Shown here: positions 38,058 through 50,688 of the stretch, one piece after another
How the letters are laid out: each line of letters opens with the position of its first letter
Position numbering within the stretch: the stretch's first letter is position 1
Assembly (NCBI GenBank): GCA_963798845.1
Contig: CAWCUS010000002.1
Coordinates: 32,001-96,000, forward strand
Origin: an uncultured Gemmatimonadales bacterium
GTDB lineage: Bacteria > Gemmatimonadota > Gemmatimonadetes > Longimicrobiales > RSA9
DNA length: 64,000 bases
Reading direction: 5' to 3'
Position numbers and translations under genes: made by a program
The notes under the pieces: generated by a model
The model's database searches: none
What the model was told of the DNA's origin: nothing
What the model saw: the letters and a program-made list of their open reading frames with translations, nothing else

Positions 38058-38903
38058 ATGCTCCTGTCCCCGATCCTCGGATCGGCCGCGATCGTGGGAG
38101 GCGTGGGCCTCACATTCGGGACGCTGATCGCGCTGGCGAACCGCAAGCTGAAGGTATGGGAAGACCCGCGCATCGACGATGTGGAGGGGCTGCTCCCGGG
38201 ATCGAACTGCGGCGCGTGCGGGCAGGCGGGGTGCCGGGCGTTCGCCCAGGCCGTGATCAGCGGCGAGATCACGCCGGCGCAGTGCACGGTGATGGGCGAG
38301 GACCAGCGCCAGGATGTGGCCGCGTACCTCGGAGTGGACGCTGGACAGGCGGACAAGCGGGTGGCCCGCCTGCTGTGCGCGGGGGGAAGCGACGTGGCCG
38401 CGCGGCGCGCTGAGTACTACGGCGTCGAGAGCTGCGCCGCCGCGGTGGCCGTGGGCGGCGGTGGGAAGGGGTGCACGTGGGGTTGCGTCGGCCTGTCCGA
38501 CTGCGCCGTCGCGTGCGACTTCGACGCCATCGTCATGAACGAGCACGGTCTGCCGGTGGTCGACGTGGAGCTGTGCACCGCCTGCGGCGACTGCGTGGAC
38601 GCGTGCCCGCTCGGGCTGTTCACCATCCTCCCGCTCGACAACCACCTGCTGGTGCAGTGCAAGAGCCTGCTCGAAGGGGATGCCGCCACCGAGGTCTGTT
38701 CCGTGGCGTGCAATGCGTGCGGCCGGTGCGCGGCCGACGCCCCCGCCGGCCTGATCGCAATGAAGAACGGGCTGGCCGTGATCGATCACGGCAAAGCCGA
38801 GCTGGAAACGAAGAACGCCACCGCCCGGTGTCCCACCGGCGCGATCGTGTGGGTCGAGGGCGCGCAGTTCCGCGAGCCCATTGTCGCAGGGAGTATCCGA
38901 TGA
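38058..38903 (+). CDS. rnfB: Rnf complex subunit B
   Basis: N-terminal TM, LPGSNCGACGQAGC, several CxxCxxC...CP ferredoxin motifs. Confidence 0.92.
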   Translation: MLLSPILGSAAIVGGVGLTFGTLIALANRKLKVWEDPRIDDVEGLLPGSNCGACGQAGCRAFAQAVISGEITPAQCTVMGEDQRQDVAAYLGVDAGQADKRVARLLCAGGSDVAARRAEYYGVESCAAAVAVGGGGKGCTWGCVGLSDCAVACDFDAIVMNEHGLPVVDVELCTACGDCVDACPLGLFTILPLDNHLLVQCKSLLEGDAATEVCSVACNACGRCAADAPAGLIAMKNGLAVIDHGKAELETKNATARCPTGAIVWVEGAQFREPIVAGSIR

Positions 38904-41900
38904 AGATCCCGTTCAGCAAGAAGCCGGCGACTGCCGACGAGCCCCGTTTCCCAGGGGTCCCCGAGGCCATCGACGGCAGCACCGCCATCGTCCAGATGGA
39001 GACCGCGGGCAGCGAGGCCGCCGGCGCCTACCCGATCACCCCGTCCACGCAGATGGGCGAGGGCTGGGCGCTGGCCGTGTCCCAGGGGGCGACGAACGTG
39101 AACGGCCGCCGGCTGCTCTTCTTCGAGCCCGAGGGCGAGCACGCGGCGGCCGGCGTGACCGCCGGCATGAGCATGGTCGGCCTGCGCGCCACCAACTTCT
39201 CCAGCGGCCAGGGCATCGCGTACATGCACGAGAGCCTGTACGCCGCCGCCGGGAAGCGGCTCACGTACGTGCTGAACGTGGCCGCGCGCGCCATGACGAA
39301 GCATGCGCTGAACGTGCACGCCGGCCACGACGACTACCACGCCGTGGACGACACGGGATTCTTCCAGCTCTTCGCCAAGGACGTGCAGAGCGCGGCGGAC
39401 CTGAACCTGATCGCCCACCGGATCGCGGAGCTGTCGCTCAACCCGGGGCTGGTGGCGCAGGACGGATTCCTGACCAGCCACGTCATCGAGACCATCCGGC
39501 TCCCGGAGCGGGAGCTGGTGCGGGAGTACCTGGGCGACCCGTCGGACATCATCGAGTCGCCCACGCCCGCGCAGCGCATGGTCTTCGGCGAGATGCGGCG
39601 GCGCATCCCGGAGCTGTTCGACGTCGACTACCCGGCCATGCTCGGCACGGTGCAGAACCAGGACAGCTACGCACAGGGCGTGGCCGCACAGCGCCCGTTC
39701 TACTTCGACCACGTGCGCGCGCTCGCTGACCGGGCCATGTCCGAGTTCGCCGAGCTCAGCGGACGCCGTTACGCTCCCGTGCTCGGCTACCGTCTGGAGG
39801 ACGCGGACTACGTCCTCGTGGGCCAGGGCTCGGTGATCCCCAACGCCGAGGCGGTCGCCGACTACCTGCGCGAGAAGCGCGGGCTGAAGGTCGGCGTGCT
39901 GGACATGGTCATGTTCCGGCCGTTCCCTTCCGACCTGGTGGCCCGGGCGCTGGCGGGGAAGAAGGCCGTGGCCGTGCTGGAGCGCGTCGACCAGCCTCTC
40001 GCCGTGGACGCGCCGCTGCTGCGGGAGATCCGCGCGGCCATGTCGAAGGCGGTGGAGAACGGCCGCGTCGCCCGGGCGGGGAAGCCGGTGCCGCCGCGCT
40101 ACCCGCTGCCGGAGAACCTGACGGTGAAGCTGCCCCACGAGGGACTGCCGGCGCTGGCCGCAGACCAGGTGCCGGACTTCTACAGCGGCGGTTTCGGCTT
40201 TGGCAGCCGGGACCTCCAGGCCGGCGACCTGGTGGCCGCGGTCGAGAACATGACCGAGGGTGGCTCCGGACGCCGCCAGTACTACCTGGGGATCGAGTTC
40301 GTGCGCAAGAGCACGCGCCTGCCGAAGCTGGAGATCTGGCAGCAGCAGCTGATCGAGGCTTACCCGAAGCTGCCGGAGCTGGCGCTGGAGCCGGTGAAGG
40401 CCGTGAACCTGCTCCCCGAAGGGTCGACCGCGCTGCGCATCCACTCGGTGGGCGGCTGGGGCGCCATCACCATGGGGAAGAACGTGGCGCTCACGGCGTT
40501 CGAGCTGGCGGGGCTGCACGTGAAGGCCAACCCGAAGTACGGCTCCGAGAAGAAGGGGCAGCCCACGACGTTCTACGCCACGCTCAGCCGCGAGCCGGTG
40601 AAGATCAATGCCGAGCTCAAGCACGTGGACGTGGTGCTCTCGCCGGACCCGAACGTGTTCCGGCATTCCAACCCTCTGGCCGGGCTGAGCAAGGGCGGGG
40701 TGTTCGTGATCCAGAGCGACCTCTCGCCGGAGGCGGCATGGGACAGTTTCCCATCGGACGCGAAACGCTACATCCGGTCGCAGGGGATCAAGGTCTACGC
40801 CATCGATGGCTTCAGCATCGCGGGCGAGGAAGCGAGCGACCCGGAGCTGCGCTACCGGATGCAGGGCGCGGCGTTCATGGGCGCGTTCTTCAAGGTCGCG
40901 CCGCTGGCCGAGCGCGAGGGGCTGGATGAGGCGACGCTCCTCGCCGGGATCCAGGACCAGATGAAGCGGAAGTTCGGCAAGCTGGGCGACCGCGTGGTGC
41001 AGGACAACGTGCGCGTGATCCGGCGCGGCTTCGACGAGGTGAAGGAAGTGGTGCCGCGCGCGGAGGAGGGGGAGCCGAACCAGGTGGCGCTCCCCGTCGC
41101 CGGGGTGCCGGAGATGCTGGACGTGCCGGTGGCGGAGATCGGGATCGGCAACCCGGGCCGCTTCTTCGAGCAGGTGTGCTCGCTCTACGGCGCGGGCGAG
41201 GAGCCGATCGCGGACCCGTACGCCGCCATGAGCGCGATCCCGGCCGCCACGAGCGTGATCCGGGACATGACCAACATCCGCTTCGAGGTGCCGGCCTTCA
41301 ACGCCGAGAAGTGCACCGGGTGCGCCCAGTGCTGGATTCAGTGCCCGGACTCCGCGATCCCGGGGCTCGTGAACACCGTGGAGGACCTGCTGGACACGGC
41401 CATCCGGACGGCTTCGAACGGGCGCTCGCTGGACCGGATCCGACAGGTGTCGAAGCACCTGTCGAAGGAAGCCCGGAAGGTCATCGAGGGCGTGCCATTC
41501 AACAACTTCGGCGACACGCTCAAGGCGGCGTACAGGAACCTGGTCCCGAAGCTGAACTGGGAACCGGAGCGGCGGCAGGAGCTGGACGACGATTTCGCCG
41601 CCGTCTACCCGATCCTCGCCCAGTTCCCGCTGGCGAAGACACAGCCGTTCTGGGACGTCCCGGAAGGCAAGGAGAAGGGGAGCGGCGGACTGCTCTCCAT
41701 CACCGTGAACCCGGAAGCGTGCAAGGGCTGCAACATCTGCGTGAACGTGTGCGCGGACGGCGCGCTGACCACCATCAAACAGGATGACGAGGTGGTGGAG
41801 GCGCTGCGGAGGAACTGGGCGTTCTGGAAGGAGCTGCCGGACACGGCCGATCGCTACATCAACGTGCGGGACCTGGAGGAGGGGATCGGCGTCCTGCCCA

Positions 41901-44032
41901 CGCTGCTGCTGAGAAAGGACACGTACCGCAGCATGGTCGGCGGCGACGGGGCGTGCATGGGGTGCGGCGAGAAGACCACGGTTCACCTGATCACGTCCAC
42001 GATCGAAGCGCTCATGCAGCCGCGCGTGGCGCGGTTCGTGGAGCACCTGGACGAGCTGATCGCCGGCCTGGACGCCAAGGCCAGGGACCTGCTATCCAGC
42101 GACGCGGACCTGGACCTGCTGGCGGTGGCCGACGGTGCGCGGGTGGATGTGCCGATGAGCGAGGCCAAGCACCAGGAGCTGGGCCACCTGGCCACGGCCA
42201 TCAAGGCGCTCAAGGACCTGAAGTGGCGCTACGAAGAGGGGCCGAGCGGCCGCGGCCGCGCCGCCGCGGGGATCAGCAACTCCACCGGCTGCTCCAGCGT
42301 GTGGGGGAGCACGTACCCGTACAACCCCTACCCCTTCCCCTGGGTGAACCACCTGTTCCAGGACGCGCCGTCCATCGCGATCGGCATCTTCGAAGGACAC
42401 ATGCGGAAGATGGCCGACAATTTCGTGACCGTTCGGCGCGCCGAGAAGCTGCTGGCCGGGAGCTACATCCCGGAGCGCGACGAGCCGTTCTTCACGGACT
42501 TCGACTGGCGCCAGCTGAACGATGACGAGTTCAACCTGGTGCCGCCGATCCTGGCGATCGGCGGTGACGGCGCAATGCTCGATATCGGGTTCCAGAACCT
42601 CTCCCGTCTGCTGGCGAGCGGAAAGCCGATCCGGGTGGTGGTGCTGGACACCCAGGTGTACTCCAACACGGGCGGGCAGGCGAGCACCGGGACGTACACC
42701 GGCCAGTCCGCGGACATGAGCCCGTACGGGCGCGCGATCCACGGCAAGACCGAAGTGCGGAAGGAGCTCGCCTACATCGCGATGGCGCACCGTGGCGCGT
42801 TCGTCCACCAGACGTCCCAGGCTTCGGCCGCGCACATGATCGGCGGCGTGATCAAGGCGCTGAAGACCCGCCGGCCGGCCGTGATCAACGTCTACGCACC
42901 GTGCCCGGTGGAGCACGGGCTCCCCGACGAATGGGCGCCCACCGCGGCGAAGCTGGCGCTGGAGAGCCGCGCCTTCCCGTTCCTCACGTACGATCCGGAT
43001 GGGGGCCGGTCGATTTCCGAGTGCCTCAGCCTCGATGGGAACCCGTCGGTGACCGAGGTCTGGCCGACGTACGAGCTGAAGTACCTGGGCGCGGACGGAG
43101 CCGAGCAGACCGTGGAGCTCCCCGTGACCATCGCCGACTGGGCGGCCACGGAGACGCGCTTCAAGAAGCACTTCAAGCCAATGCCGGAGAGCGACTGGAA
43201 CGAGGACATGGTTCCCTTCCACGAGTTCGTGGCGCTGGATGCAGATGAGCGGGACGGAAAGACGCCCTTCATCCACACGGTGGGCGACGGCCGCACGCTC
43301 CAGCGGGTGCGGGTCTCGCACGAGATCGTGCAGCTGGCCGAGGAGCGGCTCCTCTTCTGGCACCAGCTCAAGGAGCTGGCCGGCCTCGAAGTGCCCGACT
43401 GGGTGCGCGACGAGATCGGCAGCGAAATGGAGGCGGAGCTGGAATCGAAGGTCGCCGCTGCCCGGCAGGAGTTCGAAGCCAAGCTCGAGGAGATCAGGGC
43501 CACGTACCCACGGATCGTCGCCCGCCGCCTGGCGGAGGGGCTGGTCCGGTCCGGGAACGGCGGCCGAACCGTGGCCGACCTGCTGCGCACGGCCGAAACG
43601 ACGCCCGGGCTCCAGCCGATCGGCGCGGACGTGGGTGGGCTGAGCCTGGGCTCGTCCCGCACCGCGGCAGCGAACGGCGGAGGCGTGGCCGTGGCGGACG
43701 CGCCCGCGGCGCAGGCCGCGGCCCCCGCGGCGGCCGTAGAGGCGCCCAGGTCCGCGACGGCCGTGGAGGAGGACGGCGACCTGGCGATGGAGCCGTTCAT
43801 CGAGACCGCCCGCTGCACGACCTGCAACGAGTGCACGAACCTCAACAACCGGCTGTTCAAGTACAACGACCAGAAGCAGGCGACGATCGCCGATCCGAAG
43901 GCCGGCACCTTCGCCGAGCTGGTCATGGCCGCCGAGCGCTGCCCGGCCGGGATCATCCACCCCGGGACCCCGCTCAACAAGAAAGAGAAGGACCTGCAGA
44001 AGTGGATGAAGCGGGCGGAGCCGTTCAACTGA
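38900..44032 (+). CDS. large single-chain pyruvate:ferredoxin oxidoreductase (NifJ/PFOR-like) with extra C-terminal ferredoxin domain
   Basis: ATG overlaps the rnfB stop; YPITPST, VAARA, CTGCAQCWIQCP, CKGCNICVNVC, GACMGCGE, TGCSSVWG, GGDG...YSNTGGQ, APC; tail CTTCNEC...ERCP; 1710 aa. Confidence 0.92.
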   Translation: MKIPFSKKPATADEPRFPGVPEAIDGSTAIVQMETAGSEAAGAYPITPSTQMGEGWALAVSQGATNVNGRRLLFFEPEGEHAAAGVTAGMSMVGLRATNFSSGQGIAYMHESLYAAAGKRLTYVLNVAARAMTKHALNVHAGHDDYHAVDDTGFFQLFAKDVQSAADLNLIAHRIAELSLNPGLVAQDGFLTSHVIETIRLPERELVREYLGDPSDIIESPTPAQRMVFGEMRRRIPELFDVDYPAMLGTVQNQDSYAQGVAAQRPFYFDHVRALADRAMSEFAELSGRRYAPVLGYRLEDADYVLVGQGSVIPNAEAVADYLREKRGLKVGVLDMVMFRPFPSDLVARALAGKKAVAVLERVDQPLAVDAPLLREIRAAMSKAVENGRVARAGKPVPPRYPLPENLTVKLPHEGLPALAADQVPDFYSGGFGFGSRDLQAGDLVAAVENMTEGGSGRRQYYLGIEFVRKSTRLPKLEIWQQQLIEAYPKLPELALEPVKAVNLLPEGSTALRIHSVGGWGAITMGKNVALTAFELAGLHVKANPKYGSEKKGQPTTFYATLSREPVKINAELKHVDVVLSPDPNVFRHSNPLAGLSKGGVFVIQSDLSPEAAWDSFPSDAKRYIRSQGIKVYAIDGFSIAGEEASDPELRYRMQGAAFMGAFFKVAPLAEREGLDEATLLAGIQDQMKRKFGKLGDRVVQDNVRVIRRGFDEVKEVVPRAEEGEPNQVALPVAGVPEMLDVPVAEIGIGNPGRFFEQVCSLYGAGEEPIADPYAAMSAIPAATSVIRDMTNIRFEVPAFNAEKCTGCAQCWIQCPDSAIPGLVNTVEDLLDTAIRTASNGRSLDRIRQVSKHLSKEARKVIEGVPFNNFGDTLKAAYRNLVPKLNWEPERRQELDDDFAAVYPILAQFPLAKTQPFWDVPEGKEKGSGGLLSITVNPEACKGCNICVNVCADGALTTIKQDDEVVEALRRNWAFWKELPDTADRYINVRDLEEGIGVLPTLLLRKDTYRSMVGGDGACMGCGEKTTVHLITSTIEALMQPRVARFVEHLDELIAGLDAKARDLLSSDADLDLLAVADGARVDVPMSEAKHQELGHLATAIKALKDLKWRYEEGPSGRGRAAAGISNSTGCSSVWGSTYPYNPYPFPWVNHLFQDAPSIAIGIFEGHMRKMADNFVTVRRAEKLLAGSYIPERDEPFFTDFDWRQLNDDEFNLVPPILAIGGDGAMLDIGFQNLSRLLASGKPIRVVVLDTQVYSNTGGQASTGTYTGQSADMSPYGRAIHGKTEVRKELAYIAMAHRGAFVHQTSQASAAHMIGGVIKALKTRRPAVINVYAPCPVEHGLPDEWAPTAAKLALESRAFPFLTYDPDGGRSISECLSLDGNPSVTEVWPTYELKYLGADGAEQTVELPVTIADWAATETRFKKHFKPMPESDWNEDMVPFHEFVALDADERDGKTPFIHTVGDGRTLQRVRVSHEIVQLAEERLLFWHQLKELAGLEVPDWVRDEIGSEMEAELESKVAAARQEFEAKLEEIRATYPRIVARRLAEGLVRSGNGGRTVADLLRTAETTPGLQPIGADVGGLSLGSSRTAAANGGGVAVADAPAAQAAAPAAAVEAPRSATAVEEDGDLAMEPFIETARCTTCNECTNLNNRLFKYNDQKQATIADPKAGTFAELVMAAERCPAGIIHPGTPLNKKEKDLQKWMKRAEPFN

Positions 44033-44198: not shown

Positions 44199-45749
44199 AT
44201 GTCAGCAGAAGCCTTACATGAGCCGACAGACGGAGGCCGAGCCGGAACGCGCCGCTCGCGCCGCCGCTCGCTCGCCGAGCTGTTGTTCGGGCCCAGCTTC
44301 CGGCACGGCGTTCACCCGCCCGGCTCGAAGGAGCAGACGGCGGACCTGCCGATCCGGCGCATGCCGTTCCCCGATGAAGTGGTGCTCCCGCTGCGCCAGC
44401 ACACGGGGAAGCCTTCGAAGCCGATCGTGAAGGTGGGCGACCACGTGGAGCGCGGCGACGTGGTGGCCGTGGCGGATGGCTATGTGTCCGTGCCCATGCA
44501 CGCGCCGGCGGCCGGAGTGGTCCGGTCCATCGGCTGGTGGCCGCACCCGGACGGCAGCATGGACGCTGCGATCCGCATCGAGGTGGACCGTTTCAACCCG
44601 CAGCTGCCGCGTCCGCGGCTGGTGCCCGAGTGGCAGGGGCTGACGGCCGACCAGGTGCGCAAGGCGGTGCAGGCCGCGGGCGTGGTGGGGCTGGGCGGCG
44701 CGGCGTTCCCGACGCACGTGAAGCTGAACCCGCCGGAGGAGTCGCCCGTCGAGCTGCTTCTGATCAACGGCGCGGAGTGCGAGCCGTACCTGACGAGCGA
44801 CCATCGGGTCATGGTGGAGTACCCGGAACGGGTGCACTTCGGCATCCGGGTGATGATGCAGTGCCTCGGCGTGGCGCGCGCGGTGGTCGGGGTCGAGAAC
44901 AACAAGCCCGACGCCATCGCCCGCCTGAAGGAGACCGTCCCGCCCGACCTCGACATACAGGTGATCGGCCTCACGGTGAAGTACCCGCAGGGCGCCGAGA
45001 AGATGCTGATCAAGGCGGTGACGGGCCGCGAGGTGCCGTCGGGCAAGCTGCCCATGCACGTCGGCGCGGTGGTCCAGAACGTAGGCTCCATCGCCGCGAT
45101 CGCGGAGGTGTTCGAGACGGGGTACCCGCTGATCGAGCGGATCGTCACCGTCACCGGACCCGGCGTCCGCACGCCGCGCAACCTGATCGTTCCCGTGGGC
45201 ACGAAGCTGCGCGACGTGCTCGAGTTCTGCGGCGGCCTCACCGATGACGCGACCGAGATCATCTTCGGTGGCCCGATGATGGGGATGCCGCAGGCGGACC
45301 TGGACGTGCCGATCGTCAAGGGGACGTCGGGGATCGTGGTCCTGACCGAGGCGGAGTCGGCGCGGCCGGCGCCCAACCCGTGCATCCACTGCGGCCGCTG
45401 CCTCGAGGCCTGCCCGGTCTTCCTGAACCCGCAGCAGCTCGGCCAGATGGCTCAGCGCGGGTTCTACGAGGAGATGGAGGCCGCGCACCTGATGGACTGC
45501 ATGCTGTGCGGCTCCTGCTCCTACGTCTGCCCCTCGAACATCCCGCTGTCGCAGATGTTCGCCCTGGGCAAGAGCGGACTGCGCCGGCTGAAGCAGCGCG
45601 AGAAGGAGAAGGAGGCGGAGAAGGAGGCGGAGAAGGCGAGGCAGGAGAGGGTGGACCAGGCGAGAGTCGAGGCCGCGGCGGCCGCGTCGTCGCCTTCCGG
45701 CGCCGCAGTCGGCGCGCGCGCGAAGGAGGGGGCGGAGGTGCACGCATGA
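44199..45749 (+). CDS. rnfC: Rnf complex subunit C
   Basis: GVVGLGGAAFPTHVK, NGAECEPYLTSD, KYPQGAEK, GGPMMG, CIHCGRC, CMLCGSCSYVCPS. Confidence 0.96.
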   Translation: MSAEALHEPTDGGRAGTRRSRRRSLAELLFGPSFRHGVHPPGSKEQTADLPIRRMPFPDEVVLPLRQHTGKPSKPIVKVGDHVERGDVVAVADGYVSVPMHAPAAGVVRSIGWWPHPDGSMDAAIRIEVDRFNPQLPRPRLVPEWQGLTADQVRKAVQAAGVVGLGGAAFPTHVKLNPPEESPVELLLINGAECEPYLTSDHRVMVEYPERVHFGIRVMMQCLGVARAVVGVENNKPDAIARLKETVPPDLDIQVIGLTVKYPQGAEKMLIKAVTGREVPSGKLPMHVGAVVQNVGSIAAIAEVFETGYPLIERIVTVTGPGVRTPRNLIVPVGTKLRDVLEFCGGLTDDATEIIFGGPMMGMPQADLDVPIVKGTSGIVVLTEAESARPAPNPCIHCGRCLEACPVFLNPQQLGQMAQRGFYEEMEAAHLMDCMLCGSCSYVCPSNIPLSQMFALGKSGLRRLKQREKEKEAEKEAEKARQERVDQARVEAAAAASSPSGAAVGARAKEGAEVHA

Positions 45750-46825
45750 GAGGGTGGCGCGGGACGGGATGGGAGCAGCGGAGTGGCGTGCCAGGCCCGG
45801 AGTCGCCGGAGTTGAGGCTCGTCGCCTCACCGCACCTGCACGGGCAGGATTCCACGGCCCGGATCATGTGGTCGGTGGTGGCCACGCTCGTGCCGGTGCT
45901 GGTAGCCGCCACGTTCTTCTTCGGCGTGAGCGCGCTCCTGGTGGTGGCGGCGAGCATGGTGGGCGCAATGGGCATCGAGCGGCTGCTCGGCCGTGGCGGC
46001 GCCCTGCGCGACGGCTCGGCGGCGATCACCGGACTGCTCCTGGGGCTCACGCTCCCGCCCGGGTTCCCGCTGTGGATGGCATTCGTGGGCGGCGCGTTCG
46101 GGATCGGGTTCGGGAAGCTGATCTTCGGCGGACTGGGGCAGAACATCTTCAATCCGGCGCTGCTCGGCAGGGCGTTCCTGCAGGCGGCGTTCCCCACCGC
46201 GATCACCACCTGGCCGGCCGTGCGGAGCGCGGCGGCCGCCGGCTCCTGGCTCCAGCTGCGCGGCGACCTCTTCGCCGCCCCGCTCATGACGGCAGGAAAG
46301 GTGGACGTGGTGACCGAGGCCACGCCTCTGGGGCTGATGAAGTTCCAGGGGCAGGGCACGGCGCTGTGGCACCTTCTGGTGGGCAACGTCGGAGGATCCA
46401 TTGGCGAGACGTCGGCGATCCTGATCCTGCTGGGCGGGGCGTACCTGGTGGCGCGCAACTACCTGAACTGGCGAATCCCGATCGGGATCTTCGCCACCGT
46501 CGGGGTGCTCTCCAGCGTCCTGCACGCCATCAACCCCGCCTACCCGGGACCGCTCTTCATGCTCTTCAGCGGCGGACTCATGCTCGGCGCGGTCTACATG
46601 GCCACGGACATGGTCACTTCGCCGGTGACGCACAGCGGGTCATGGATCTTCGCATTCGGGATCGGGCTGCTCGTCGTGGTCATCCGGGTCTGGGGCGGCC
46701 TGCCCGAAGGGGTGATGTACTCGATCCTCCTGATGAACGCGCTCGTGCCGTTCATCGAGCGCGCCACCCAGCCGCGGGTGTTCGGCACGGCCCGGAGCCG
46801 GGCCGGGAAGATGGGGGCGGCATGA
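45746..46825 (+). CDS. rnfD: Rnf complex subunit D
   Basis: SPH, FGGLGQNIFNPA, TEATPL FMN-Thr site, GSIGETS, MATDMVTSP; ATGA overlap. Confidence 0.95.
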   Translation: MRGWRGTGWEQRSGVPGPESPELRLVASPHLHGQDSTARIMWSVVATLVPVLVAATFFFGVSALLVVAASMVGAMGIERLLGRGGALRDGSAAITGLLLGLTLPPGFPLWMAFVGGAFGIGFGKLIFGGLGQNIFNPALLGRAFLQAAFPTAITTWPAVRSAAAAGSWLQLRGDLFAAPLMTAGKVDVVTEATPLGLMKFQGQGTALWHLLVGNVGGSIGETSAILILLGGAYLVARNYLNWRIPIGIFATVGVLSSVLHAINPAYPGPLFMLFSGGLMLGAVYMATDMVTSPVTHSGSWIFAFGIGLLVVVIRVWGGLPEGVMYSILLMNALVPFIERATQPRVFGTARSRAGKMGAA

Positions 46826-47628
46826 GCGACGAAGGGAAGCGGGAGCTGCCGGTGACCCCGGACCAGGCGTACCAAGCCGGGGGCGAGGCGGGTCCGGCAT
46901 TCGAGACGGACGCCGGACCTCACCCCTCGATGGACGAGGTCCCGTCGTGGCGCCTGGTGACCACGCTGGCCGTGGCGGGCGCCATGGCCGGACTGCTGAT
47001 CGTGGGCGTGTTCCAGTGGGCGGAGCCGCAGATCCTGGAGCACAAGGCGCAGGTGATGAGCGAAGCCATCGGCGAGGTGCTGGCCGAGCCGGACCACGTC
47101 CAGTCCCTGTACGTGGTGAACGATGCCCTCACACCGACCCCGCCCGCCGGCACGGACACGGTCACCGCGGAGAAGGTGTTCCTCGGCTACGACGCCCGCA
47201 ACCGGCCGGTCGGATTCGCGGTGCAGGGTGCGGAGCCCGGCTTCCAGGACGTGATCCAGCTCATCTTCGGCTACGACCCCGTGCACAAGCAGGTGCTCGG
47301 GCTGCGGGTGCTGGAGAGCAAGGAAACGCCGGGGCTCGGCGACAAGATCACCAAGGACCAGAAGTTCATCTCCGCTTTCGACAGGGTCACCGGGCCGATC
47401 CGGGGCGTGAAGGAGGGGGCGGGACAGGGGAGGGATGACGAGGTGGACATGATCACGGGCGCGACCATCTCGTCGCGAGCCGTCATCCGGATCATCAACG
47501 ACCGCCTCGAAGCGCTCGACCCTGTGCTCACCCGCTACATGGCGGAGAAGTACGGGGCCGCGAGTGCTCCGCTGGAGGGAAAGGCGCCGGCGCCGGCGTC
47601 GTCGGGTGTCGAGGGAGGTGAGCAGTGA
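46822..47628 (+). CDS. rnfG: Rnf complex subunit G (FMN-binding)
   Basis: Single TM, ETPGLG, DMITGATISS flavinylation motif; ATGA overlap. Confidence 0.93.
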   Translation: MSDEGKRELPVTPDQAYQAGGEAGPAFETDAGPHPSMDEVPSWRLVTTLAVAGAMAGLLIVGVFQWAEPQILEHKAQVMSEAIGEVLAEPDHVQSLYVVNDALTPTPPAGTDTVTAEKVFLGYDARNRPVGFAVQGAEPGFQDVIQLIFGYDPVHKQVLGLRVLESKETPGLGDKITKDQKFISAFDRVTGPIRGVKEGAGQGRDDEVDMITGATISSRAVIRIINDRLEALDPVLTRYMAEKYGAASAPLEGKAPAPASSGVEGGEQ

Positions 47629-48314
47629 GTCCCCGCCGGACCACGCCCACGCAGGACTTCCTGCGCGGGATCTGGAAGGAAAACCCGGTGCTGGTGCAGA
47701 TGCTCGGGCTCTGCCCGACGCTCGCCGTCACCAACACGGTGGCGAACGCCATCGCCATGGCCGCGGCCACGTTCTTCGTGCTTCTCGGCAGCAGCATCCT
47801 GGTCTCGCTGCTCAAGAACCTGATCCCGAACGAAGTGCGGATCAGCGCCTACATCCTGATCATCGCCACGTTCGTCACCATGGCGGACCTGACGCTGGCG
47901 GCGCTGGTCCCGGACATTCACAAGGAGCTGGGCGCGTTCATCGCCCTGATCGTGGTCAACTGCATCATCCTGGGGCGCCAGGAAGCTTTCTCTTCCAAGA
48001 ACACCGTGCGCCGCTCCATGCTCGACGCCGTGGGCACCGGTTTCGGGTTCACCATCGCGCTGCTGCTGATGGGGAGCTTCCGCGAGCTGCTCGGGAACGG
48101 GAGCATCCTGGGGGTGGCGGTGTTCGGACCGTCGTTCGAGCCGTGGGTGATCTTCGTGCTGCCTCCGGGCGGGTTCTTCACGCTCGGCTTCATCCTGCTC
48201 GCGTTCGGGTGGTGGGAGGAGAAGAAGGGGAAGGCGAAGCGGCCCGCTATCCGTGAGTGGCCGCACGGTGTGGCGTCGAGCACGGCGAGCGGGACCGGAA
48301 AGGTGGTGGCGTAA
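47625..48314 (+). CDS. rnfE: Rnf complex subunit E
   Basis: ENPVLVQMLGLCPTLAVT, LIVVNCIILGR, RELLG, LPPGGF. Confidence 0.95.
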   Translation: MSPRRTTPTQDFLRGIWKENPVLVQMLGLCPTLAVTNTVANAIAMAAATFFVLLGSSILVSLLKNLIPNEVRISAYILIIATFVTMADLTLAALVPDIHKELGAFIALIVVNCIILGRQEAFSSKNTVRRSMLDAVGTGFGFTIALLLMGSFRELLGNGSILGVAVFGPSFEPWVIFVLPPGGFFTLGFILLAFGWWEEKKGKAKRPAIREWPHGVASSTASGTGKVVA

Positions 48315-48892
48315 TGGGCAGCGAACTGTTCTTCATCTTCATCTCGGCGCTCCTGGTCAACAACTTCACGCTGGCCATGTTCCTCGGGCTGTGCCCGTTC
48401 CTGGGGGTTTCGGGACGGGTGAGCACCGCGGTGCGCATGGGGATGGCCAACATCTTCGTGCTGGTCCTCACGTCGGTGGCCGCGTGGTTCCTCAACACTT
48501 ACGTGCTGGTCTCGGCGCCCTACCTGCGGCTGATCTCGTTCATCGTGGTGATCGCGTCGCTGGTGCAGATCGTGGAGATGACCATCAAGAAGGTGAGCCC
48601 GGCGCTGTTCCGGGAGCTCGGGATCTACCTCCCGCTGATCACGACCAACTGCGCGATCCTGGGGCTTGCGATCTTCCAGACCAACCGGGGCTACGGCTTC
48701 GCCGAGGGCCTGGTGTTCGCCATTGGCGCGGGGCTGGGGCTGACGCTCGCGCTCGTGCTCATGGCCTCGATCCGCGAGCGGACGCAGTTCTCGACCGTCC
48801 CCGGCGTCGCCAGGGGGATGGGCCTGGTGCTCATCATCGCCGGCAGCCTGTCGCTGGCGTTCATGGGCTTCGCGGGGCTGTTCAGCTCGTGA
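48314..48892 (+). CDS. rnfA: Rnf complex subunit A
   Basis: NNFTLAMFLGLCPFLGVS, LGIYLPLITTNCAILG, SLAFMGF; TAATG overlap. Confidence 0.95.
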   Translation: MGSELFFIFISALLVNNFTLAMFLGLCPFLGVSGRVSTAVRMGMANIFVLVLTSVAAWFLNTYVLVSAPYLRLISFIVVIASLVQIVEMTIKKVSPALFRELGIYLPLITTNCAILGLAIFQTNRGYGFAEGLVFAIGAGLGLTLALVLMASIRERTQFSTVPGVARGMGLVLIIAGSLSLAFMGFAGLFSS

Positions 48893-49032
48893 GCGTGGCC
48901 GCGGCGGTCATCGGGTTCGCGGTGCTCTTCGGCGCGTTCGGGCTGCTGGCCCCGGCGCTCCGGAGGAAGGGGTGCGGTGGGGGGAGCTGCGGCTCGTGCG
49001 GCGGTGGCTCGTGCAAGTACACGGAGCAGTGA
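48889..49032 (+). CDS. 47-aa single-TM four-Cys microprotein (NqrM-like / FeoB-associated Cys-rich-like)
   Basis: GTGA overlap with the rnfA stop, ends 1 nt before apbE; MSVAAAVIGFAVLFGAFGLLAPALRRKGCGGGSCGSCGGGSCKYTEQ. Confidence 0.75.
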   Translation: MSVAAAVIGFAVLFGAFGLLAPALRRKGCGGGSCGSCGGGSCKYTEQ

Positions 49033-49033
49033 G

Positions 49034-50029
49034 ATGATGAATCCTGAAAGCGATCGGCGCCCCACGCGGCGCGAGTTCATCGGCCTGGGTCTCGGCGCCC
49101 TCGTGGTGGCCGCGACGCCGGGCGTGATCCGGCCTCGCCGCGCGCGGCTGGTGCGCCGGACCATCCCGGTGATGGGGACCATCGCCGAGGTGGGCGTGGT
49201 CGATCGCGACGAGCGCCGGGCCGAGGCCGCAATCGACGCCGCGCTCGCCGAGCTTCGCGCCGTGGATCGGGCCATGACCCGCTTCAGCGATCACTCCGAG
49301 GTCGGGCGTGCCAACCTGGAGGCGCAGAAGCGGCCCGTCCCGGTCGGTGCCGCGACAGCCACGGTCGTGGCCGCGGCGCTCGAGTGGGCCTCGAAGACGG
49401 AGGGCGCGTTCGACCCGGCGATCGGCCGGGCGGTTGGCCTGTGGGACGTGAAACACCGCCACGCGCCGCCCGCCGAGGGCGAGGTCCGCAGCGTGGCGAG
49501 GGCCGGGCTTTTCCGGGCGCTGGAGCTCGGGCGCCGGGGCGGGAGCGATGTACTGCTCTACCACGACCCTGCCGTCTCCCTGGACCTGGGCGGGATCGCC
49601 AAGGGCTACGCGGTGGACCGCGCGGTGGCGGCGCTGCGGGACCGCGGCGTCGAGAACGCACTCGTGAACGCGGGCGGCGACCTCTACGCCATGGGCGTTT
49701 CCGAAGACGGGGACGCGTGGGAAGTGGGCGTCCGGGATCCGTCGAACCCTGCGGGCATCATCGCCCGGTTCCGGATGAGCGACCGCGCGGTCGCCACGTC
49801 CGGCGACTACGAACAGTATTTCGACTACCAGGGGCGACGCTACTCGCACCTGCTGGATCCCCGCACGGGCGCCCCGCGCCGCACCGCGGAGCACAGCATC
49901 ACGGTGGCGGCGGACCGCTGCATCGATGCCGACGCCGCGGGCACGGCCGCATTCGGTCAGGACGCGGCGAGCGGGGAGCGACTCATCCGCCGCGTGGATC
50001 CACGCGCGGACCTGCTGTACATCGCATAG
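49034..50029 (+). CDS. apbE: FAD:protein FMN transferase ApbE with Tat signal
   Basis: TRREFIGL Tat motif, MGT, DLGGIAKGYAVD, NAGGD, ATSGDYE, HLLDPRTG, ADAAGTA. Confidence 0.95.
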   Translation: MMNPESDRRPTRREFIGLGLGALVVAATPGVIRPRRARLVRRTIPVMGTIAEVGVVDRDERRAEAAIDAALAELRAVDRAMTRFSDHSEVGRANLEAQKRPVPVGAATATVVAAALEWASKTEGAFDPAIGRAVGLWDVKHRHAPPAEGEVRSVARAGLFRALELGRRGGSDVLLYHDPAVSLDLGGIAKGYAVDRAVAALRDRGVENALVNAGGDLYAMGVSEDGDAWEVGVRDPSNPAGIIARFRMSDRAVATSGDYEQYFDYQGRRYSHLLDPRTGAPRRTAEHSITVAADRCIDADAAGTAAFGQDAASGERLIRRVDPRADLLYIA

Positions 50030-50038
50030 GAGGAGACC

Positions 50039-50260
50039 ATGAGCACACAGAAGGCCTACTGCTCGGCCTGCGACCACGAGGTCGAGGTCGTGCTGCGGCC
50101 GGACTTCGAGATGGTGCCCGGGGAGCCGATCCCCACGGAGGCCATGGTCTGCCTTGCCTACGGCGAGACGTGCACCGGCGCGCTCTGTCCCCTCTTCGGC
50201 GTCGCGCCGGAGCAGATGCGGGGCAACCTGGACCGGAGCGGACTGCTGAACCACGGTTGA
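50039..50260 (+). CDS. small Cys-rich hypothetical protein (73 aa)
   Basis: AGGAG RBS; YCSACDH...VCL...CTGALC...RSGL. Confidence 0.8.
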   Translation: MSTQKAYCSACDHEVEVVLRPDFEMVPGEPIPTEAMVCLAYGETCTGALCPLFGVAPEQMRGNLDRSGLLNHG

Positions 50261-50271
50261 AGGAGGGCTCC

Positions 50272-50688
50272 ATGGACGAGGGCACGACGGAGACACGGAC
50301 GCTGTACTGTCCGAAATGCAGCCACGACGTGACGGTGACGGTCTCGCCGGCGCCGCTCCACAGCGGGCATGCCTCCATCCCGGACGGCGGTGAGCTGGTC
50401 TGCCTCGACTTCGGCCCCGACTGCACCGGGCCGCTGTGCGCGGTGTTCCGGGTCCCGCGCGTGGTGATGGGAGTGCGCCTGGCCCGGAGCGGACTGCGCC
50501 CAGACCGCCTCCAGCACGTGCGCGCGCTCTGCGAAGGGTGCCAGCGCGTCGTCCACCTCGAGATCCTCGACGAGACCCACGCCCACTGCCCGGACTGCGG
50601 CACGGTCAACACATGGAGCATGATGCGCCTGGACGGCGAGCAGTGGGTGGCCGTCACCGGACCGCGCGCGGCCGCCGAGCTGGAGTGA
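50272..50688 (+). CDS. Cys-rich hypothetical protein (138 aa), paralog of the preceding gene plus a Zn-ribbon
   Basis: AAGGAGG RBS; YCPKCSH...VCL...CTGPLC...RSGL, then CEGC...CPDCG. Confidence 0.8.
   Translation: MDEGTTETRTLYCPKCSHDVTVTVSPAPLHSGHASIPDGGELVCLDFGPDCTGPLCAVFRVPRVVMGVRLARSGLRPDRLQHVRALCEGCQRVVHLEILDETHAHCPDCGTVNTWSMMRLDGEQWVAVTGPRAAAELE

Follow-up and report, generated by a model that had tools for sequence, protein, structure and literature searches.

A cysteine-rich membrane microprotein gene coupled to rnfA in Gemmatimonadota and other phyla: a candidate Rnf counterpart of NqrM

The Rnf and NQR complexes have in common an unusual Fe-S centre that lies inside the membrane, held between two small subunits. 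NQR is known to have a dedicated helper, NqrM, whereas for Rnf none has been established besides the poorly understood RseC. PMC12174285 reports that NQR requires NqrM for its intramembrane [2Fe-2S] centre. According to PMC11729352, RseC has a cysteine motif in which an oxygen-sensitive Fe-S cluster forms, and it interacts with Rsx; the same paper states that V. cholerae and A. woodii assemble Rnf without RseC. A further group that has to be considered here is the FeoB_associated family PF12669, for which PMC8749426 gives the motif Cx3-5Cx2-3Cx6-8C. In the full-text literature that was searched, we found neither a description of a Cys-rich microprotein behind rnfA nor a connection between PF12669 and Rnf.

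The DNA studied here, called the window in the following, is a stretch of 64,000 nucleotides from an uncultured bacterium of the Gemmatimonadota. It carries an rnf cluster with the following features (coordinates are those of the window):

38058..38903, + strand: rnfB, at the head of the cluster (match to TIGR01944)
38900..44032, + strand: gene of a pyruvate:ferredoxin oxidoreductase (PFOR)-like protein of 1710 aa, between rnfB and rnfC
44199-45749, + strand: rnfC
45746-46825, + strand: rnfD
46822-47628, + strand: rnfG
47625..48314, + strand: rnfE, whose product has C30 and C113
48314..48892, + strand: rnfA (TIGR01943, 6.8e-67), whose product has C27 and C113
48889..49032, + strand: microprotein gene, 47 codons plus stop with a GTG start, orthologs at 16 of 17 rnfA loci of relatives
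48892..48969, + strand: predicted transmembrane helix of the microprotein, residues 2-27 (AlphaFold2 and conserved A11, L13, F14, the LF..FG face)
48973..49014, + strand: putative four-cysteine knot C29-x4-C34-x2-C37-x4-C42, residues 29-42 (cysteine conservation)
49034..50029, + strand: apbE, encoding an FAD:protein FMN transferase (PF02424, 9.4e-75)
50039-50260, + strand: conserved Cys-rich ORF of 73 aa, at the cluster end
50272-50688, + strand: conserved Cys-rich ORF of 138 aa, at the cluster end

The open reading frame between rnfA and apbE is exactly as a sequence-only reading of this DNA had described it, with one helix and a cysteine tail in 47 residues (VSVAAAVIGFAVLFGAFGLLAPALRRKGCGGGSCGSCGGGSCKYTEQ): the N-terminal helix is followed by a basic RRK stretch and by the C-x4-C-x2-C-x4-C tail. 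Its GTG start codon (48889-48891) shares bases (GTGA) with the TGA stop codon of rnfA (48890-48892), and the ATG of apbE at 49034 lies about 1-2 nt past its own stop codon (49030-49032). The GTG start is supported by a genome of the same genus, in which the homologous position reads ATG. The exact protein of the window is absent from a collection of 15 billion proteins in which the ortholog of the same genus is present; this fits a gene-caller miss in this genome, as the sequence-only reading had suspected. The 4.26-Mb genome, translated in all six frames, contains 90 stretches that match C-x3-4-C-x2-C-x3-5-C. Only two of them are also preceded by 18 uncharged residues in a row and have a stop close by, namely the microprotein and an obvious off-frame match.

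The four ligand cysteines which had been claimed for the two neighbouring membrane subunits are well conserved. C27 and C113 of RnfA show no variation among 120 sequences; of 109 RnfE sequences all have C113 and at least 90% have C30. Concerning the other genes of the cluster, the PFOR-like protein reaches 390.7 bits on TIGR02176, far under the cut-off of 911, and its long C-terminal extension has a single-cluster ferredoxin domain (PF13370, residues 1635-1687) at the end, which suggests that a hard-wired PFOR-ferredoxin-Rnf module is encoded here. The two Cys-rich ORFs at the cluster end are paralogous across their N-terminal part, and neither matches a Pfam or NCBIfam family at its cut-off. 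Homologs of them are found behind the rnf cluster at 39 of 47 loci of the phylum and at 17 of 80 diverse loci, none of the latter belonging to the type 2 described below; their nearest Atlas clusters are unnamed Gemmatimonadota proteins (0.94). These two proteins may be further accessories of this Rnf type.

The microprotein ORF is a real, conserved gene which is coupled to rnfA. Among 41 related genomes 15 possess rnfA, and a small ORF is present at 16 of their 17 rnfA loci, the exception being the second rnf copy of G007. For 15 of the 16 ORFs, the start and the stop of rnfA share a 4-nt overlap (ATGA or GTGA). In the alignment of these relatives L13, C34, C37 and C42 are invariant, A11 and F14 nearly so, and C29 is conserved in at least 90%. 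A profile built from the 16 sequences was searched across 401 Gemmatimonadota genomes and gave 70 matches in 69 genomes, 67 of which sit 0-124 nt behind rnfA on the same strand. A search for RnfA in the same 401 genomes gave 98 loci in 94 genomes. At 67 of the 77 rnfA loci that are at least 68% identical to the window RnfA the microprotein profile has a match, and at 6 more a divergent ORF with a transmembrane segment and cysteines (TM+Cys ORF) was found by eye. Four loci are without ORF, namely G165, G388 and the second rnf copies of G348 and G394.

Both G165 and G388 have apbE directly behind rnfA and no match to the microprotein profile genome-wide, so the gene is not indispensable. The genomes with two rnf copies (G007, G348, G394) have the ORF at one copy only, which fits a factor acting in trans. 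The second rnfA copy of G394, without microprotein, is directly followed by a NuoA-like ORF that was identified by eye (L078, G394:C9). A rearranged order, rnfD-rnfG-microprotein-apbE-rnfE-rnfA and then a Cys protein of the 138-residue type, occurs in G308 (L044, L079; G308:C2); the microprotein gene was relocated there along with apbE, yet it is still within the operon. The profile match in G397 was rejected as spurious, being off-frame and without a helix. A weak paralog (E 5.9e-4) with helix and Cys tail is encoded away from rnf in G419 (L173:2558-2698 (-), G419:C186), between a LTXXQ/Metal_resist gene and a PepSY_TM gene and near an RND transporter, which is a metal-related context.

In total the microprotein family comprises 605 clusters at 50% identity (E<=0.001). 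Exactly four tail cysteines are found in 202 of 207 distinct members, and the commonest spacing is C-x3-C-x2-C-x3-C. With its length within 40-80 residues, its LF..FG helix, its four tail cysteines and its position behind rnfA, the window protein belongs to this rnfA-linked TM+Cys family. For the closest pair dN is 0.062 and dS 0.38 (dN/dS 0.16); the median dN/dS over 91 pairs is 0.62, and purifying selection is clear for the closest pair only. Two members are unusual: in P0198 (91 aa) about 50 further residues follow the Cys region at the C-terminus, and P0133 (101 aa), possibly a chimeric gene call, starts with a different membrane segment. Longer, fused forms of the microprotein were searched for and none turned up, which is weak evidence.

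For a survey beyond the phylum an RnfA alignment was compared with 185,579 species genomes and the 80 best rnfA loci were examined, which also cover Acidobacteriota, Gammaproteobacteria, Bacteroidota (Saprospiraceae), Planctomycetota, Calditrichota, Rhodocyclaceae and others. A TM+Cys ORF just past rnfA passes an automatic filter at 68 of the 80 loci, one of these passes being spurious (L114) and two doubtful (L112 and L164). Two extra ORFs of this kind were found by eye (L088, L163), and two loci stop at a contig edge. The start overlaps rnfA in 38 out of 67 diverse loci, with an offset of -4 in 30 and of -1 in 8. The constant partner is therefore rnfA and not apbE, which comes next at only 32 of the 80 diverse loci (and at 6 of 34 type-2 loci).

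Two sequence types can be distinguished. Type 1, to which the window copy belongs, has the LF..FG helix and four cysteines, whereas type 2 combines a W..Q helix with a longer linker and three conserved cysteines, and is found behind rnfA in Acidobacteriota, Gammaproteobacteria, Bacteroidota, Calditrichota and other phyla; Parasulfuritortus cantonensis is one of its carriers. The comparison of both profiles with hhalign gave a probability of 96.2% and a score of 47.3, the maximum in 100 architecture-preserving shuffles being 22.5; judged by these profiles the two types are homologous. In a tree of RnfA (FastTree, local supports only) 32 type-2 rows group in one clade (95% support), and the remainder holds 74 type-1 rows. 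Ten rows without ORF are scattered singly over the tree, as expected of independent losses. Many type-2 members (A5, L107-L165) have an extra cysteine within the transmembrane helix (LC..W) besides the three conserved tail cysteines; this intrahelical cysteine could be a fourth ligand or could have arisen by chance.

AlphaFold2, with 77 relatives as input, predicts a helix for residues 2-27 with a pLDDT >90 across the first 20, and leaves the Cys tail unstructured with low confidence, as expected for a metal-dependent knot. Across 207 members the helix is preceded by 0.03 K/R on average, and the ten residues that follow it contain 2.26; by the positive-inside rule the tail should therefore face the cytoplasm. 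In the Protein Data Bank the best match had an E-value of 0.15 (type 1), neither type matched an Rnf or NQR entry, and there is no complex of this Rnf clade among the matches. A complex prediction of RnfA, RnfE and the microprotein from alignment inputs (score 0.00, mark 0.32) gave no answer either way.

The likeness to NqrM that the sequence-only reading had put forward holds for the architecture and not for family membership. The window protein has no match to PF04400 (NqrM/DUF539, cut-off 22 bits) at E<=1, and among the best 25 of the 29 families matched by its 77 relatives PF04400 does not appear. The own genome has no PF04400 match either, in a search whose control was also without matches anywhere. 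In five gammaproteobacterial genomes PF04400 gave one sub-threshold match only, to an NqrM by context. The 57-residue ORF behind nqrF and apbE in G428 (L166:1498-1671 (-)), which is NqrM by context, scores 18.5 bits on PF04400, below the cut-off of 22, and no precomputed Pfam label was found on any of the best 120 of its 564 relatives. From 27 of these best 120 of 564 relatives an NqrM alignment (A4) was made. The type-1 profile aligns with the A4 profile over the full length, with an hhalign probability of 92.4% and a score of 36.2. Control maxima were 16.4 for fully shuffled columns and 35.4 in 100 shuffles that kept the helix and tail blocks. As 36.2 is barely above 35.4, the likeness is real in architecture and Cys spacing and is no proof of common descent. 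G428, a member of the Woeseiaceae, has nqrF-apbE-nqrM and in addition an rnfA-linked type-2 gene (L123:2092-2232 (+)), and nqrM and the microprotein gene are therefore separate genes. By its sequence the window microprotein is not a member of NqrM/DUF539.

The comparison with the FeoB-associated family, which the earlier reading had recommended, showed PF12669 to be the nearest curated model, but the window copy scores 10.6 bits (E 0.73) with the cut-off at 27. Of the 77 type-1 relatives 49 match PF12669 at E<=1, the best at 2.9e-7, and a precomputed PF12669 label exists for 6 out of 74; among type-2 proteins 7 of 28 match, all sub-threshold. The own genome has no PF12669 match at E<=1, nor do five Bacteroidota and Calditrichota genomes have any. 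In NCBIfam the window protein has no match, and none of 32 scanned proteins reaches any cut-off. The nearest Atlas clusters are named 'FeoB-associated Cys-rich' (0.87), which we regard as a lead only. The RseC_MucC model PF04246 matches neither the window protein nor the own genome. Above its cut-off RseC is found in all 13 genomes of the group f10, which have a divergent rnfA without ORF, and in none of the 388 other Gemmatimonadota genomes. Outside the phylum RseC is also present in 3 of 5 type-2 genomes tested. This complementarity is not strong evidence because it is confounded with lineage and fails outside the phylum. The N-terminus of RnfB shows a similar succession of a helix and a CG.CG...C stretch, and one type-2 member matches the RnfB-like NF005504 at 6.1e-5, far under its cut-off. 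An origin of the microprotein from the RnfB N-terminus is unsupported, with hhalign probabilities of 11.5% and 4.7% over about 15 columns.

We tentatively propose, with belief falling a little behind doubt, that the microprotein may be a membrane-anchored, cytoplasm-facing factor which handles iron or Fe-S for the intramembrane [2Fe-2S] of RnfA/RnfE, analogous to NqrM. It would be a single-pass inner-membrane peptide with the N-terminus outward and a C-terminal tail of about 20 residues on the cytoplasmic face. The four cysteines, within 14 tail residues near the membrane surface, would bind either iron or a small Fe-S cluster, perhaps with two peptides paired as a dimer. During assembly the helix would dock on RnfA/RnfE through its conserved face (A11, L13, F14, F17/G18). 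The metal would be handed to the four buried cysteines (C27/C113 of RnfA, C30/C113 of RnfE) that hold the intramembrane [2Fe-2S]. The microprotein would then be the Rnf counterpart of NqrM, and the adjacent apbE would perform flavinylation, the other maturation step. Metal binding, the contact with RnfA/E and the delivery step are what we infer from context and chemistry. Short Gly-rich peptides with a similar Cys spacing assemble [4Fe-4S] clusters in vitro.

Several observations favour such an iron-handling role. The own genome is without RseC, NqrM or PF12669 match, and the family resembles iron-linked proteins, as seen with PF12669, in the Atlas and in the hhalign comparison with NqrM. In addition the gene is tightly linked to rnfA, its type tracks the RnfA tree, and cysteine chemistry and topology fit. 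That the protein would act as a helper is favoured by the NqrM analogy, by the pairing with apbE within the phylum, by the genomes that carry the gene at a single rnf copy, and by the absence of such a chain from solved structures. Against the proposal speak the likeness to NqrM, which hardly exceeds the shuffles, the lack of the gene in G165 and G388, and the well-studied Rnf complexes, which to our knowledge assemble without any such protein.

The main rival is that the microprotein might be a small stoichiometric subunit of this Rnf class, comparable to the single-helix subunits of other respiratory complexes. Its Cys knot, at the cytoplasmic side close to RnfA/E and RnfB, would then carry either a structural metal or an additional Fe-S centre. 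We consider a subunit rather unlikely, although the gene structure speaks for it: the overlap of its start with the rnfA stop (15 of 16 relatives, 38 of 67 diverse loci) implies that it is made in about the same amounts as RnfA, a structural subunit, and this is more fitting for a subunit than for a catalytic helper. The conserved residues A11, L13 and F14 on one face of the helix, the co-variation of the microprotein type with the RnfA clade and the placement of the ORF right behind rnfA, with rnfB at the cluster head in this operon type, point in the same direction. The local CG.CG...C likeness to the RnfB N-terminus would also be in line with a subunit, but it is insignificant (11.5%, 4.7%). 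Moreover, the gene is missing from some rnf copies and from two genomes, and no similar chain is found in the Protein Data Bank, though no complex of this Rnf clade is among its matches. A more general role, as a membrane-anchored PF12669-like metal peptide for buffering or hand-over which is placed in the rnf operon for co-regulation and has no specific action on Rnf, would agree with the sub-threshold PF12669 matches, the Atlas neighbours and the weak G419 paralog in its metal-related context. As 67 of 70 matches in the phylum sit at rnfA, no feoB context was found and the family type tracks the RnfA phylogeny, we regard this as improbable.

Smaller still is the chance that the microprotein regulates rnf expression or activity, e.g. 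by sensing redox state or iron, a regulatory role that has been proposed for RseC in Clostridium ljungdahlii. Such sensing could be the task of a labile Fe-S site, and for C. ljungdahlii genetic evidence for an effect of RseC on rnf transcription is cited in PMC11729352. However, a peptide of 47 residues with a 20-residue tail offers no DNA-binding or signalling domain, and the lack of fused longer forms, weak evidence as it is, points the same way. Hardly any credence can be given to a helper of ApbE in the flavinylation of RnfD/RnfG: the gene adjoins apbE here and was relocated together with it in G308, but apbE is next in only 32 of 80 diverse and 6 of 34 type-2 loci, rnfA being constant, and we know of no need for a Cys cluster in flavin transfer. 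Finally, in DNA with a G+C content of 70%, as found in the window, open frames are cheap and are common here on every strand, and dN/dS is high between distant pairs, so that a chance open frame has to be considered. This explanation is refuted by the conservation data and keeps practically no weight, because 605 clusters at 50% identity keep the Cys positions and the helix, different phyla share the position of the gene and the feature is unique in the genome.

A wider and clearly doubtful extension of the iron-handling proposal is that the microprotein family, NqrM and the PF12669 peptides might form one superfamily of membrane-anchored iron or Fe-S hand-over peptides. In a widespread Rnf class linked to pyruvate oxidoreductase, the rnfA-linked branch would in that case serve the buried [2Fe-2S] as its dedicated insertase, or else as an extra subunit that bears a cluster. 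If this superfamily exists, it would provide a specific genetic answer to the question how Rnf acquires its intramembrane cluster. The microprotein also suggests a candidate function for the uncharacterised PF12669 peptides beside the iron importer FeoB. In practice, attempts to produce such Rnf complexes in a foreign host may fail when this gene, which is easily missed, is not included.

Among the known systems that come close to the microprotein is NqrM. Both have about 50-60 residues, a single N-terminal helix (N-out), a basic stretch and four cytoplasmic cysteines, and the last three cysteines, C-x2-C-x3-C, are common to the NqrM alignment A4 and 91 of 207 family members. Both genes also adjoin apbE in the operon of homologous pumps, whose D/E subunits (RnfE/A) hold the intramembrane Fe-S centre. 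They differ in the first Cys spacing, which is x3-4 in the microprotein family (x4 in the window copy) and x7 in NqrM, and in the gene order, which is rnfA-microprotein-apbE on one side and nqrF-apbE-nqrM on the other. With the PF12669 peptides the microprotein shares size and layout, and PF12669 is the sole curated model that responds. Their motif, however, differs from the spacing in the window (x4, x2, x4) by a longer last interval, and the neighbours of the microprotein gene are rnfA and apbE and not feoB. RseC/RnfF is likewise a small membrane protein with a cytoplasmic Cys motif and, according to PMC11729352, a partner of an Rnf-type complex and of ApbE. It is larger (about 130-160 residues) and has two helices and an N-terminal Cys domain, whereas the microprotein has one helix with the cysteines C-terminal of it. 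What is new is a conserved, rnfA-wired microprotein in a large multi-phylum Rnf clade, the window copy of which is captured by no scanned Pfam or NCBIfam model; in kind it resembles what is already known, a small Cys-rich membrane accessory of Rnf/NQR-type pumps.
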